Positions 45,001-51,000 of a DNA stretch of 59,077 bases are shown here, piece after piece. This stretch comes from a virus (taxonomy: Duplodnaviria; Heunggongvirae; Uroviricota; Caudoviricetes), in the IMG/VR virus record IMGVR_UViG_2690316267_000014. One strand, written 5' to 3'. Numbering within the stretch: position 1 is the stretch's first letter; every line of letters starts with the position of its first letter. The position numbers were made by a program.

Positions 45001-48000
45001 ATGGTTGGTTGACGTTTCCGAGATTTCCCGAAAATTATTGGTTGACGAACCCTTCTTTTCCCGAAAGTTTCCAGCCTGAAGCATGGCGGCGCTGTCTGGC
45101 GGGGCAGCATATAGCGGCACGTATATTTCCGGTTCCTTATCAGCACCGGGTTGCTCTTCCAGTGAGAATGTCTTTCCGGTAAATCGATTCATATAAAGCA
45201 CGGGCTCTGCTTCCAGCGAAGCCTGAGCAACAAGGGCCAGTGCTAAATCCAACTCAATTGCCTCGAGAGAATTTTTGAATGCTGTCTGTTTTACTGCAAA
45301 TTTCATCGCCTTTACATTTTCACTAACATGACTGATTAACTGCTCTTTTGTAAAAGTGGTCATCTCATTCTCCTTTGATGCGAATGCCAGCGACAATTGA
45401 AGCCTGATAGCTAATTTACTCACAGTACCGCCTCCTGAAAATTCCCCTGATAGAAAGCCAGCACGCGCTGCATAACTTCACTATTCCGGCACTCGCGACA
45501 GATTATGTTCAGGCGTCTATCGTAGCGGCGAATTTCTCCGTCTGGTAACTTTCGAATCAATGTCTGGTCAGTTGTTTTCTCCGGTGTCTTACGCCATACG
45601 CGATACACCTGTTCTGATGCAAAAACACCGTATTTACCGGACATGTATAAATCGCCACAAGCCAGTACATCCACAAGGCAACGTCTGACTGAATGCCAGC
45701 CTGCTCCCGTCGCTCTCTCCAGTTGCGATATCGTCATGCGTTCATTTTTGCGTACCAATCCGATAATTCGTGCCTTCAGTTCTTCCCGCTGTTCGTGTGT
45801 AAAAGGTTTCGCCATAAGCGCCTCCGGCAATCACTTTTCCGACACAATACGACCGGATGAATCGACAATCTGTCGAACAATATCCCGGTGCTTGTTCAGC
45901 TCCCGCAGCGCGGCGCAGACTCGCTCCCACTTCTGGACCTGTTTTTTGGCGCGACGAAGTTCTCGACTGGCAGCATGCAGCGATGGAAGCATCACCGAAC
46001 TGGCAGATTTTTCGGTGAATGATGGAACTTCTCGGATAAACTCATCTGTACTGGCCTTTGCCGTGCTCTCTGATGCCAACGGAAAACGATTCATTTCATC
46101 GCCTGCCGCGCTGTTTTCTGCGTCATGGTGTGATTGCTTATTCTGCGATGATAAGGCGCTCAAATCGCCGTTTTCGACATCAGGCATTTTGTAACGGAAT
46201 TTTCCGTTGCTGATCTCGCGTACCAGGCGTCTCGTTGCTGTTACCACCGCCAACGTGGAAGCAACCTTACGAGTGCTGACACCGAACTTCCCCGCCAGTT
46301 CCTCACAGGTTTTAGCCCCCTCCTGAGAGATAAACTCAATCATCATGTCAGCGCTAACTTTTGGAGCGACCTCTTCGGTCAGCATATCCTGTGTTTCAGA
46401 TTTTACTGGCCGCTCTTCGGTTACCCGGGATTCACCTTCGACAGCCAGAAACCAGGTGTGACCCGTTTTATCAACAACGCCATTTTTTTTGAGCTCCCAC
46501 AGTTCGTTGAGAACTTCTTCACGGCTGATATCAAGTCGTGCCGCCAGTTCAACAGAATTGGCTTTTCCCATCGCTTTCAGTGCATGTAATACGGTTTCCA
46601 TCGAAAATTTACCTCGTCAAAAATTCTCACATACCCTGACGTCCAACGTTTGACCGCCAGCTCTCCCAGTTAAAATTCACCCAACGACCACCGTTCATGG
46701 TCATCCGGTCCATAATCCTCTCACCAAGAAGCGTGCTCATTGCGGCATGATTCAGGTTTGTCAGCATCCCGACACTGCGCAGTGATGCCGTCCGGCGGTC
46801 AACAATCTGGTGCAGTACCACCTGCTCGTTTTTCGTCTCACGCTGGATGCCAATTTCGTCAAGAACCAGGAGGTCCACTTCGCACAGTTCACGCAAAAAT
46901 TTTTCCCCTGACAGTCCGTCGTCATAGCTGGCATGTAACGCGCTCATCACATCCGCCACGGTGACCACTATCACGGATTTACCGGCCTTCAGCAGACGAT
47001 TACCCACAGCCGCCGCCAGATGATTTTTTCCGGTTCCCGGATTCCCGCTGAACACGAAGTTTGTATAACCGGTCATCAATTCATCGACAATGGATTTCGC
47101 CTGGCTCAGAGCATGGCGCTGACCGTCGTTCTGCACCCGGTAGTTCCCGAATGAGCACTTCCTGTGAAGCGGCTGGATGCCCGCACGGTTCAGGATTTTT
47201 TCAACCCGCGCCTGATGATTCAGGCGGTTAATTTCCTCGCTGCGCTTACGGCCCTCAGCCAGTTGCCATTCCCGCCATTCGTCGGTCGTCCGGAACGGTG
47301 CTGCCACGTGCGGTGGTGCCAGACGGCGCACCCGTTCAAGAATCCCTCCAGTCGAAATGTTTTTCATGGCTGATTACCCCCTGAAACCCGGCGGAATTTC
47401 GGTGTCCGGTTCAGAAATGTGATTCACGCAACGCAGGCTGACTGCGCCAGCCTTCGGCAGCGACCACGGATTTTCGAAATTCCTGTTCGGGCCAAAAAAC
47501 GTCGATGCCTGCTGAACAAATTCAGTTCCCGCTTTCCCGGTAGCCTCCAGGTATCTTGCGTAACGCCTCACGCCATCCAGCACGACATCCGGTGACACCC
47601 CTTCGCGTAATCTGGCCCTCCAGGCATTGAACGCGGATTTCTTCGGGTTTGACCCTGCCCGATGCGGATATTCACGCCAGACCCGTTCGAACACGTCAGG
47701 ATAATCAACTCGTCCCGCAGACGGTCCCGGCATCTCCCGGGTTAACCCAATCGGCTTCCCGCTCATCGCGGAATCGGCATCAGGCTGCTGCGGTTGGTGC
47801 TGTTGCTCCGGTTCGACGATCAGCACCTGCTGCACACAACGCCCGGAATCTGCTTCCGGTGTCGTGCCAGTTGGTCCTGGACGCTCAGTCAGAACGGGGC
47901 AAGAATCCCCCTGTGGGTCCGTGGCGATTTTTTCGCCATGGACCAGAAGGGTTTTATCTCTTTCCTGTTCCTGTTCCTGTTCTTGTTCTTGGCTTGAAAG

Positions 48001-51000
48001 GGGCTCTGAAGGGGCTTCAATTTTCCGACATGATTCACGTCTGACATCCAGATGGAAATCATCCTTATATCTATCATAAAAGGATGATAAAAAAGGATTT
48101 TCCAGCAACGCGGAATATTCATTTCTTACCCCAGCACAACGGTTATCGCCAGGTTTCAGCGATTCACCAACCTGCCATGCTGCCATTTCATGCACCCATA
48201 CAACCTCAGAATCATGGTCATAGCTGCAAAAACCAGCCTCGCAAGCCATCTGAAGCCCCTTAGAAGCCCCTTCAGGCTCAAGTCCGGTTTCGTGAGCAAT
48301 GTACAAAACGGGCAGGTAATAAAGGCCCAGCATATTGGAATGAGGCGAGGTCATCATATACAACGCCACTACCATACATTCCGGACCAGACTTCCTTAGT
48401 TTTCGCCCTGTTTCGCCTAACCAGAACTGAGGTGAAATTGTTGCGTAATTACGCATAGTCCCCTCTCATACAAGATTTACTTCATCCCGCAGACGGTCCC
48501 GGCATCTCCCGGGTTAACCCAATCGGCTTCCCGCTCATCACGGAATCGGCATCAGGCTGCTGCGGTTGGTGTGACTGCACATTGGTGTGACTGCACATCT
48601 TCGCAGACGGTCCCGCTATCTCCGGGTTAACCCAATCGGCTTCCCGCTCATCACGGAATCGGCATCAGGCTGCTGCGGTTGGTGTTTTTGCTGGCGAAAT
48701 ACTTCCAGATGTGGCAGAATTATTTCCGAGTATTGCTCCATGCCCTCTGAATATCAGATATTCATCAGGATTTGCTCAGAACGTCCGGCCCCAACCGGAC
48801 GTTTTTTATTTGCATGAGAGTTAATCGCATGCTGAAACGCCCGGCTGATCGGACTGATATCCGATGCCATCTGGAACGCACATAAAATCGCCGCAATGTA
48901 TCGCCAGTCGGTACGACTGATCTTCGATTCATGGCAGCCAATCATCTTTGCCAGTCCCCTTTGCGTCAGAGCTGACAGGTTGATAAGTAAATCCGTTTCA
49001 GCTCGATCGATATCGCGCTGTGACAGTTTGCTGTAACTTGTTTGTGACATTTCTTATGATTCCAAATAGTGAATAGTTAGTTGAAAGGTATGCGTGGAAA
49101 CGCATATGGCCTTAGTTGGTCAGATATCTTGGGGCTCGCTTTGTCAGCGACGTAGGACGAATGCCCATTGTGAAAAGAGCGGTGTTACTTATGCTGCCGA
49201 TGCTCTACGCGATGCGAACACAAGGTTTTCCTTTTTCACAGGTTTATAACCCGTGAAATTACGAGTAGCTTCTTCGATTGCATTCGCTTTATCAGGGGAA
49301 GCTCTTCGAAATCCATATGCAATCTGGTCAAGATAGCCAACTGAAGTTTTCGCTAATGCGGCGAGTCGCTTCCATTCCTCACTAGAAGCCTCTTTTCGCC
49401 AGCGTAGTAGTTCATTACTCATTAGTGCCTCCGTTTATCACACAGAATAACTTTACCATTTTGATAAATCAACCGCAATGTAAATTTATCATATTGCGTA
49501 TTTATCCATTTGCTAAATAGAGGGAAAATTGTGAGATGGAAAACAAAGATATTCGCAAATCAAATCTGGCGTTTTTGCTAGATGAGCATAAAAAAATCGC
49601 GGGTAACACTAATGCAAGCTTTGCCGATAAGCTTGGGGTTAGCCCTTCTCAACTCACGCAAGTCTCCGGTGAAAAAAGCACTCGAAACATAGGGGATAAA
49701 CTAGCAAGAAAATTTGAAGCCGCACTTGGGTTACCTAATGGGTGGCTTGATTTGGTACATGATGTAACACCAATTGCATCATGCTCAGATTCTTTAACTT
49801 TTGTCGGTCAGGTAAGAAAAGGGTTAGTGCGCGTGGTTGGTGAGGCAATTCTTGGTGTTGATGGTGCCATCGAGATGACCGAAGAGCGCGATGGGTGGCT
49901 CAAAATTTATAGCGATGATCCAGATGCCTTTGGTCTTCGTGTGAAAGGAGACAGCATGTGGCCCAGAATAAAATCAGGAGAATATGTACTCATAGAGCCT
50001 AACACCAAAGTATTCCCGGGGGATGAGGTGTTTGTCAGAACTGTTGAAGGACACAACATGATCAAAGTTCTTGGCTATGACAGAGACGGAGAATACCAAT
50101 TTACAAGCATCAACCAAGATCATAGGCCAATAACGTTGCCTTATCATCAAGTAGCAAAGGTGGAGTATGTAGCTGGTATTCTGAAGCAATCTCGCCATCT
50201 GGATGACATCGAGGCAAGGGAGTGGCTGAAAAGTTCGTGACTTCATCGTCACATAGCTGGTAACCAGTGGCCTGAAGAGACGTTTGGGTGAGGAGGATAG
50301 ATGGCGTTCACTGACCTTGAATATCAAGCGGTCAAAAAAGAAGTTAACCAATTCATTGAAAGCATAAGGCCGCCTGAACATATCCGCAATGAACTGGATA
50401 TTGTTTATAGCATCAATGACCAAACGATAGATATCGGCGAACAGCGCCCCGTGTGGCAGGGCAATCCAGGTGAAACAAACATCCTGCCATCAGCAAGAAT
50501 CAAGTACATACGTTCTCTGGATAGATGGAAAATCTATTGGATGCGGAAGGATATGAAATGGCATCAGTACAGTACTGAACTTTCGCTGACTGATGCGCTT
50601 GAGCTTGTGCGTGCTGACCCGGATTGCTGCTTCTTCGGATGAGTGAAGAGACGTTTGGATGATGGATGGTCGCAGAGATGCGGCCTGATTCTAAAATAGG
50701 ATATAAAAAATGAGAATACTAGGTGTTAGAGCGGCGCCCAAAGTTACATCTTTTGTTGTATATTGCACTAATGAGTCTGCACTCAAATGTGTTGATGTTA
50801 TTAAAATACCTTCGACCTTAGACACACCAGAAAAGTTAAAGTATGTGAGAAATAACATCCTCGATATTCTTAATTTATATAATGTTGAATTAGCTGCCAT
50901 ACGCGTTACTGAATCAAACTCTGATAATCTTAGCATTGACCGCCTTTATATAGAAGCTGTTATTCAAGAAGCATTTTCAAGCAGTGATGTAAGAAGATAT

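Follow-up and report, generated by a model that had tools for sequence, protein, structure and literature searches.

The window, the whole 59,077-nucleotide stretch of the IMG/VR caudoviricete record IMGVR_UViG_2690316267_000014, carries a cII gene, a replication initiator gene and a helicase loader gene, with a sequence from within the initiator gene recurring in the interval between the first two. The features at this locus are as follows:
46627-47367, minus strand: DnaC/IstB-like helicase loader gene, directly downstream of the initiator gene
47374-48456, minus strand: replication initiator gene encoding 360 aa, comprising an N-terminal domain, EQ tract, linker and C-terminal domain
47710-47799, minus strand: in-gene copy of the repeat, in the initiator inter-domain linker, aa 219-249 (QQHQPQQPDADSAMSGKPIGLTREMPGPSAG)
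47962-47991, minus strand: hexamer tract, (TTCCTG)4.5 at 47962-47988, encoding QEQEQEQEQE, (QE)5
47997-48018, no strand assigned: 11-mer array B, of GAAGCCCCTTC type as read on the coding strand, encoding EAPSEPL in a predicted disordered region; part of the candidate origin
48020-48139: A+T-rich stretch between the 11-mer arrays, G+C 0.30-0.38, a candidate unwinding region
48252-48273, no strand assigned: 11-mer array A, two copies of GAAGGGGCTTC as read on the coding strand, encoding EGASKGL at the start of helix 61-73; part of the candidate origin
48482-48571, minus strand: proximal upstream copy of the repeat, long 86-nt form, ending 25 nt ahead of the initiator ATG
48566-48597, no strand assigned: two copies of the 16-bp unit TTGGTGTGACTGCACA, bridging the two upstream copies
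48595-48684, minus strand: distal upstream copy of the repeat, long form
48616-48741, minus strand: 41-aa ORF (phrog_2751), starting in unique DNA after cII and running into the distal copy
48730-48808, plus strand: lambda-oop-like antisense RNA region, with a terminator at 48778-48805 and a body alignable to lambda-like phages
48754-49050, minus strand: cII gene (Pfam Phage_CII)

The initiator gene had originally been described as O-like, a label that holds for its position but not for its sequence. The 360-aa protein matched no Pfam family, including for its N-terminal domain, and showed neither similarity to lambda O nor a match to the Phage_rep_O N-terminal domain; its best PHROG match was instead phrog_1701, "DnaD-like helicase loader". 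A folded winged-helix-like domain and the EQ tract make up the N-terminal part (aa 1-166), and a fold search of this domain against the PDB returned only weak winged-helix matches (E of at least 0.015), which only loosely support a putative DNA-binding role. The conserved C-terminal domain (aa ~249-360) is common to many phage replication proteins and ends in a DnaT-like tail, the C-terminal tail of DnaT being the sole PDB match found by sequence (E 0.008). The EQ tract is located at the same position in eight of the ten family loci examined and differs in length among relatives, in agreement with the proposal that the hexamer tract is a variable site. The gene is preceded by a GAGGGG Shine-Dalgarno sequence, 5-6 nt ahead of the ATG.

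Upstream of the array, the region that we take to be the counterpart of lambda oop marks the end of the cII-oop module and adjoins the distal copy; its 5′ end is a presumed one, and its promoter would lie at ~48690-48725. The ORF that runs through the array occurs in ten lengths across public variants (41, 42, 46, 51, 58, 62, 72, 76, 88 and 102 aa) and in the window meets an early stop; neither length nor frame is constant from one structural variant to the next, so the ORF is probably not under selection as a protein.

A repeat search recovered a 90-nt family with three members in the window, confirming that a segment inside the initiator gene is present twice more upstream of it. The proximal copy is 98% identical to the in-gene reference over 90 nt, and the g/a difference reported previously is the sole mismatch between them over 88 nt. 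The distal copy is 78% identical when ungapped and ~95% identical when a 1-nt deletion is allowed, differing by three substitutions and one deletion (CCCGGG to CCGGG). With 90 nt matching at 95-98% identity, the three-copy match is not attributable to chance. The in-gene copy falls between the N-terminal domain with its EQ tract and the C-terminal domain, and its assignment to a linker was therefore correct. The doublet separating the upstream copies was also correctly identified, although its unit, given as gtgactgcaca, is more exactly the 16-bp sequence listed above, the first 6 nt of which are the end of the proximal copy. Relatives carry one, two or four of these 16-mers per array (e.g., variants P0122 and P0124).

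The array-adjacent unique segment (MEQY) was sought by sensitive blastn of E. coli genomes and was found in 81 of 5,426, always after cII and with at least 91% identity; no occurrence outside the cII context was detected in this set. The upstream copies are confined to one shallow clade of E. coli/Shigella prophages, and the initiator type of the window is found in ~546 genomes. The two non-cII examples checked, O157:H7 TX 376-2 and VL7S7, contain the in-gene segment and no upstream copy, and the initiator homologues from Klebsiella and metagenomes likewise lack an upstream copy. In Tritos-type phages the C-terminal module, segment included, is present without an upstream copy; even in these genes, where the N-terminal domain is different, the in-gene segment accompanies the module. 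The four viable phages isolated from the clade each have exactly two upstream copies, which is also the commonest state among the prophages; this could reflect selection instead of shared ancestry, the clade, at 91% identity or more, being too shallow to separate conservation from recent descent. An ancestral short gene, consisting of the MEQY N-terminus, linker and C-terminal domain, was considered and rejected as an extant gene, as tblastn with the predicted fusion as query gave no contiguous match from residue 1 among 50,697 phage records. The only MEQY fusion found is a frameshifted deletion product in E. coli SW071619.

Upstream copy number in relatives ranges from zero to three, with one copy in JNE120442 and G1/2, three in TOE17 and 23CRST047/049, and two in the four phages and most prophages. 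The units exist in a 63-nt form (90-bp period) or an 86-nt form (113-bp period). Across 2,910 bp, the window differs from 23CRST049 by four substitutions and exactly one 113-bp unit; the comparison of related prophages that had been recommended as a check therefore revealed copy-number variation even between near-identical prophages. Several lineage-specific variants are common to all copies, including GA[T/A]GCC, the 23-nt segment and AGATG versus AGATA/CGATG, and this sharing between upstream and in-gene copies indicates gene conversion, or concerted evolution, between them. The proximal and in-gene copies of POCJ13 are separated by a 23-nt indel and three substitutions, compared to one difference in 88 nt in the window.

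In SW071619, known from one public assembly, a single hybrid copy is present, upstream-type in its 5′ part and in-gene-type in its 3′ part. The initiator gene lacks its N-terminal domain and is annotated as an N-terminally incomplete pseudogene. Collapse during assembly is unlikely, as the parental copies are identical over no more than 28 nt at a stretch, and, to judge by the hybrid itself, the domain was lost when the in-gene copy recombined with one of the upstream copies.

G+C content is 0.55-0.65 across and beside all three copies, no A+T-rich tract adjoins them, and the sole A+T-rich stretch is the one at 48020-48139. The array was rejected as an RNA element, since its predicted fold was no better than that of shuffled sequences (z-score +0.31) and Rfam returned one sub-threshold, unrelated match and otherwise nothing. 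A C-rich leader for Rho loading was set aside on GC skew, the transcript strand being G-rich over the copies. A consensus scan identified no promoter in the repeats, which is weak evidence as the scan also missed the expected oop promoter.

The two 11-mer arrays and the A+T-rich stretch within the initiator gene keep the same layout in homologues from Klebsiella, Rhizobium and metagenomes, and these arrays, conserved family-wide, are a much better iteron or origin candidate than the upstream copies. The linker contains a further motif, GAAGCCGATT(C), present three to four times per initiator gene in all lineages and 2-3 mismatches from the candidate 11-mer iteron; weak binding of the initiator to the repeated segment through this motif is conceivable. 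The motif AATCNGCWTC occurs eight times in the 59 kb, seven of these within the three copies and the adjacent linker. Interpretation of the linker motif GAAGCCGATTC as a degenerate iteron is at best tentative: it stands 2-3 mismatches from the 11-mer, and at that level of mismatch the window as a whole has 18 matches to the 11-mer versus 15.7 expected by chance. The linker motif is also present in the Tritos-type genes, whose DNA-binding domain and in-gene repeats (TGTCACG) are different, and hence follows the C-terminal module, not the DNA-binding domain.

On this sequence evidence, the upstream copies are probably a non-coding, tandemly amplified fragment of the initiator linker, a by-product of recombination instead of a working part of an origin. 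The best reading is that part of the gene was duplicated where the cII-oop module meets the replication module and that the array then evolved in the manner of a minisatellite. The features of a minisatellite are present: head-to-tail units that differ in number between close relatives, no conserved frame or structure in the extra copies, concerted evolution among the copies and, in a single genome, SW071619, a deletion product between dispersed copies. Features of a lambda-type origin are largely lacking, as the initiator is not homologous to lambda O, the three copies are without an adjoining A+T-rich region and the segment is not co-inherited with the DNA-binding domain; several regular repeats of ~10-20 bp are supplied by the 11-mer arrays and not by the segment, which has one in-gene copy. 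Of the two interpretations in the original prediction, "scars of recombination" is accordingly supported by the range in copy number, gene conversion and the natural deletion of the N-terminal domain. "Origin-related iterons" is disfavoured by a unit of 63-86 nt in place of a short site, by its high G+C content and lack of an A+T-rich flank, by the absence of the copies where the same initiator occurs in another context and in distant homologues, and by the better candidate within the gene.

We infer the historical origin of the first copy, the absence of any function in the array and the pathways involved, namely RecA or a phage recombinase and replication slippage. The upstream copies would have been left as a by-product when the combination of cII-oop and replication modules arose, and as long direct repeats of the in-gene segment they would provide substrates for homologous recombination and slippage. 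Unequal exchange could then lead to gain or loss of 90/113-nt units and 16-nt units, while gene conversion could carry variants from upstream to in-gene copies or back. Exchange of the in-gene copy with one of those upstream would delete ~770 bp, including the putative DNA-binding N-terminal domain, and would be expected to disable prophage replication. Regulatory side-effects are possible, as the distal copy abuts the presumed oop promoter and the proximal copy ends so close to the initiator ATG.

It is unlikely that the upstream copies act in cis as accessory sites of the replicon, either as extra initiator- or host-factor-binding sites that pair with the in-gene copy by handcuffing or titration, as in P1 incC/incA or P4 ori/crr, or by assisting origin firing. 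Such a role would be consistent with a position resembling that in lambda, where the origin lies in the initiator linker, with retention of the copies in four of four viable phages, and with the concentration of AATCNGCWTC in the copies and adjacent linker (seven of its eight occurrences) at 2-3 mismatches from the 11-mer. Against it, the unit is 63-86 nt long, varies by a 23-nt indel, ranges in copy number from zero to three and has no A+T-rich flank; prophages that share both this initiator and the in-gene segment lack the upstream copies; and the motif moves with the C-terminal module, as in Tritos-type genes, instead of with the DNA-binding domain.

A phase-variable contingency leader, in which the frame and stop of the array ORF tune initiator translation by coupling or polarity, is very unlikely. 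The 42-, 72- and 102-aa forms of the ORF stop 22 nt ahead of the initiator ATG, the 51-, 58- and 76-aa forms read across it to stop at ATGCGTAA, the form in the window stops ~160 nt upstream, and neither the 16-nt nor the 113-nt unit is a multiple of three, all of which would permit such tuning. The initiator has its own Shine-Dalgarno sequence, however, no variant class is enriched save the ancestral-looking two-copy form, and the 90-nt unit keeps frame, so most changes in copy number would alter nothing. Similarly little probability is given to the array as a copy-number-tunable element of replicon control, acting by titration or handcuffing via GAAGCCGATT(C) or by translational coupling through the leader frame; if this were true, prophages would move between replication-competent, attenuated and dead states as units are gained, lost or excised.

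It is highly improbable that the distal copy and the 16-mers serve the oop promoter as an upstream regulatory sequence, affecting the level of cII and the lysis-lysogeny decision. The oop-like terminator and body are present and the presumed promoter adjoins the end of the distal copy at 48684, but no consensus promoter was found by the scan, in lambda-like phages with homologous cII-oop the place of the array is taken by the O gene, and the one-copy and deletion variants retain the unique segment unchanged. An assembly or sequencing artefact can be dismissed with near certainty: many database entries for the initiator are "partial" (e.g., 253 aa, 82 members), implying that short-read assemblies break at the repeat, but the same structure with consistent junctions recurs in four phages that were sequenced independently and, across unrelated studies, in ~80 complete chromosomes.

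The wider importance of the duplicated linker fragment is limited. It explains why short-read assemblies break inside the initiator gene of these Stx-type prophages, why the small upstream "gene" is inconsistently annotated and how prophages can lose replication competence in one recombination step, and the array provides a fast-evolving marker for typing close prophages. The conserved 11-mer arrays matter more for replication biology, as they are a concrete, testable candidate origin for initiators that occur widely in E. coli, Klebsiella and other Proteobacteria and that no Pfam family covers.

The iterons of the P1 plasmid incC/incA and of P4 ori/crr are split sets of many short, conserved and functionally required sites. 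Like these, the window has one sequence both upstream of and within the initiator gene; what is shared is a stretch of 63-86 nt in place of a set of short iterons, and the copies are long, few, variable and apparently dispensable in sister lineages, whose lack of upstream copies argues against a requirement in cis. In lambda, ori comprises four 19-bp iterons and an A+T-rich region inside the O gene linker, and the window similarly has a repeated sequence in the linker of an initiator gene at the O position, downstream of cII-oop. It differs in that its initiator is unrelated to O by sequence and its repeat is long, G+C-rich, present once in the gene and not conserved with its initiator, whereas the lambda architecture is matched by the 11-mer arrays and A+T-rich spacer at 47997-48273.

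No published description of this array was found in the literature, including that on phages P13374 and POCJ13. Neither iterons nor repeats come up in the Eru papers on Stx-phage replication regions (PMC8044961, PMC8951638), whose Eru1-3 types are proteins different from the initiator of the window. Rac-type replication modules (initiator, DnaC-like loader, DUF1627/YdaW, DUF977) have the same gene order downstream of the initiator, and the O157-type relatives are located in a YdaS/YdaT-type context; the window differs in an N-terminal domain without a Pfam family and in the joining of the module to a lambda-type cII-oop. Partial duplication at a module joint is ordinary for mosaic lambda-like phages, and the locus shares with such VNTR-like duplications a site exactly where lambda-like cII-oop homology ends, the lack of a conserved frame, shifts in copy number, concerted evolution and repeat-mediated deletion. 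It differs from them in that the duplication was drawn from inside the essential gene next to it, such that recombination can excise the DNA-binding domain.

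The window is a lambdoid prophage whose early-right operon lies on the minus strand; the features of this region are as follows.

49536-50240, plus strand: LexA-type cI repressor
49189-49422, minus strand: cro-like gene
48754-49050, minus strand: cII (Pfam Phage_CII, E 5e-26)
48616-48741, minus strand: 41-aa ORF
47374-48456, minus strand: 360-aa replication protein, the initiator
46627-47367, minus strand: DnaC/IstB-like loader
past the loader: DUF1627 gene

The initiator (360 aa) occupies the position of lambda O, is unrelated to that protein and has no Pfam match. Its top PHROG is phrog_1701, 'DnaD-like helicase loader', and the only PDB sequence it resembles is that of DnaT, over its last 25 residues; the C-terminal 24 aa (window 47374-47445) resemble the C-terminal tail of this E. 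coli primosomal protein (E 0.008-0.009), a hint that the initiator may contact the helicase-loading machinery. The AlphaFold model of aa 1-170, which used 54 homologues, is confident (pLDDT 85.7, and >90 over aa 11-140) and has a helix-helix-helix-strand-strand layout. Its PDB matches are weak and mostly of the winged-helix type, either whole proteins or domains within larger ones. Disorder is predicted for residues 145-170. The immunity region at 49536-51171 is like that of Stx phage P27: DUF3024 and a RuvC-like gene come after a LexA-type repressor, and the close relatives L006 and L024 have a Ser/Thr kinase there as well.

The repeat of an initiator-gene segment upstream of the gene, as originally noted, is real, with an in-gene copy at 47710-47799, encoding aa 219-249 of the initiator linker, and upstream copies at 48482-48571 (proximal) and 48595-48684 (distal). 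The proximal copy is 98% identical to the in-gene copy and ends 25 nt from the initiator ATG, the distal copy has one deleted base and three substitutions, and the 16-mer TTGGTGTGACTGCACA forms a perfect doublet between them at 48566-48597. All three copies are G+C-rich (0.55-0.65) and lack an A+T-rich neighbour; no promoter-like site was found in them, and the corresponding RNA is no more stably folded than shuffled sequence (z = +0.31).

Comparison with related prophages, proposed earlier as a check, revealed that the number of upstream units varies between one, two and three. The region is 94-95% identical throughout to four Stx phages (POCJ13, 75/02 Stx, phiSTEC1589-Stx1c and PhiR5_2), and of 5,426 complete E. 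coli genomes, 78-81 contain a similar prophage, always with upstream copies. Most prophages, like the four phages, have two units; JNE120442 and G1/2 have one, and TOE17, 23CRST047 and 23CRST049 have three. In most lineages the unit is short, 63 nt (period 90 bp), and is missing a 23-nt piece that is bounded by the short repeat AATCGGC(T/A)TC; the full 86-nt unit (period 113 bp) is found in the window and 23CRST047/049. In the 2,910 bp that span the dnaC-like loader gene through cI, 23CRST049 has exactly one 113-bp unit more than the window and otherwise differs from it by four substitutions; the number of copies therefore changes between sequences that are nearly the same. The number of 16-mers varies too, with one or four in some database variants. 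Among 5.8 billion proteins, the ORF entering the array takes ten lengths and frames (41, 42, 46, 51, 58, 62, 72, 76, 88 and 102 aa), and nothing suggests selection for a protein product. Many database entries for the initiator (P0001-P0017) are 'partial' and end near the repeat (e.g. 253 aa, 82 members), evidently where the in-gene copy interrupts short-read assemblies.

Within a lineage, the in-gene copy and the upstream copies have lineage-distinguishing variants in common: all three copies in the window contain CCTGATGCC, and every POCJ13 copy contains CCTGAAGCC. The window upstream copies carry the 23-nt piece and AGATG, as does the in-gene copy; those of POCJ13 lack the 23 nt and carry AGATA, with CGATG in its in-gene copy. 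Gene conversion with unequal exchange would be the simplest account of this sharing. The deletion predicted from such exchange is seen in one public assembly, E. coli SW071619, where a single hybrid copy after cII, of the upstream short type in its 5′ part and the in-gene type in its 3′ part, continues directly into the C-terminal domain. About 750 bp, the N-terminal domain, are gone, and RefSeq lists this initiator as a pseudogene, 'missing N-terminus'. Assembly collapse is unlikely because the longest run of identical bases shared by the parental copies is 28. The suggestion of a recombination scar is thereby supported and extended, through copy-number variation, shared variants and the SW071619 deletion. 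Judged by sequence, the array is an active, minisatellite-like partial gene duplication able to destroy the initiator gene; such duplications are a familiar kind of feature, and no publication was found that describes this array.

The array and a unique 70 bp (48685-48753) lie exactly at the joint between cII-oop and the replication module, since window homology to the lambda-like phages ev017 and P27, which have a similar cII, spans the oop-like antisense RNA and fades at about their O-gene start. This RNA (48730-48808, plus strand) overlaps the cII 3′ end, its body aligns to lambda-like phages and its terminator is clear (48778-48805, plus strand); it has no Rfam match, and a consensus scan found no promoter. 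The upstream units are nearest to their own lineage's in-gene copy, not the Tritos or O157 version, and were therefore derived from, or later homogenised against, the adjacent gene. The first upstream copy may have arisen either by an illegitimate join during module exchange or by intragenomic duplication.

The alternative that the upstream copies are origin iterons is unsupported: they are missing in same-initiator prophages and G+C-rich, and the segment is tied to the C-terminal module. Both same-type prophages checked, O157:H7 TX 376-2 and VL7S7, lack an upstream copy, with initiators 72-73% identical that keep the N-terminal domain and the segment-bearing C-terminal module, in a YdaT/ECs1072 rather than a cII-oop context. 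The initiator type occurs in about 546 genomes, compared with 81 with the upstream array, and more distant Klebsiella and metagenomic homologues of the N-terminal domain also lack an upstream copy. Tritos-type phages, with a different N-terminal domain, TGTCACG arrays in the gene and no upstream copy, share the C-terminal module including the segment, which therefore belongs to this module and not to the DNA-binding domain. The linker of the window and that of the O157/Tritos lineage are homologous DNA whose reading frame differs over about 13 codons (SAMSGKPIGLTREMPGPSAG versus SAIQREADRVVPENTGQPVG), a compensated frameshift of +1 then -1 (window 47700-47790 against L018, L019 and L009, the last being Tritos); by this comparison the linker is loosely constrained and tolerates reading in a different frame. 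The upstream copies are probably not the origin, and a role for the number of units in tuning replication or translation of the initiator has a small probability.

A better origin candidate is found within the initiator gene, where the 11-mer GAAGGGGCTTC occurs twice on the coding strand at 48252-48273, encoding EGASKGL, and its reverse complement GAAGCCCCTTC at 47997-48018, encoding EAPSEPL. The arrays are 231 nt apart, are the only places in the 59-kb window that match with 0 or 1 mismatch, and flank the region's lowest G+C (0.30-0.38, at 48020-48139); the EQ hexamer tract directly follows this layout. The second array lies within the predicted disordered region, with the in-gene copy of the 86-nt segment about 200 bp away. 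Each of the ten loci examined has the 11-mer at the same places in the gene (about 178-205 and 439-472), including those of Klebsiella, Rhizobium and metagenomic phages, with proteins 37-56% identical; homologues from E. coli share these positions too. Besides the window, L012, L015, L017, L018, L019, L025, L026 and L027 have the arrays. In a set of 120 homologues, the EQ tract is preceded by an EGASKGL-like peptide in 31, an EAPSKPL-like one in 21 and a mixed form (EGASKPL) in a few; the first two are one 11-mer, present in the second array in either orientation, and it is therefore the DNA repeat that is conserved, not the peptide. The (QE)n hexamer tract (47962-47991), which lies in a predicted disordered segment, varies in length among close relatives (genes of 1077, 1083 and 1089 nt); in 8 of 10 family loci checked, the second array is followed by an EQ tract.

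Other initiators that share the C-terminal domain carry in-gene repeats of a type that follows the N-terminal domain: TGTCACG repeats with 10-bp spacing in phage Tritos (L009 2493-2531 and 2753-2801), and a repeat of roughly 20 bp, present five times, in the phiP27 linker (L011 2866-2980). The 11-mer arrays and A+T-rich stretch are a likely candidate origin for a family without a Pfam entry. The likeness to lambda lies in iterons and an A+T-rich stretch inside the initiator gene, matched here by the 11-mer arrays.
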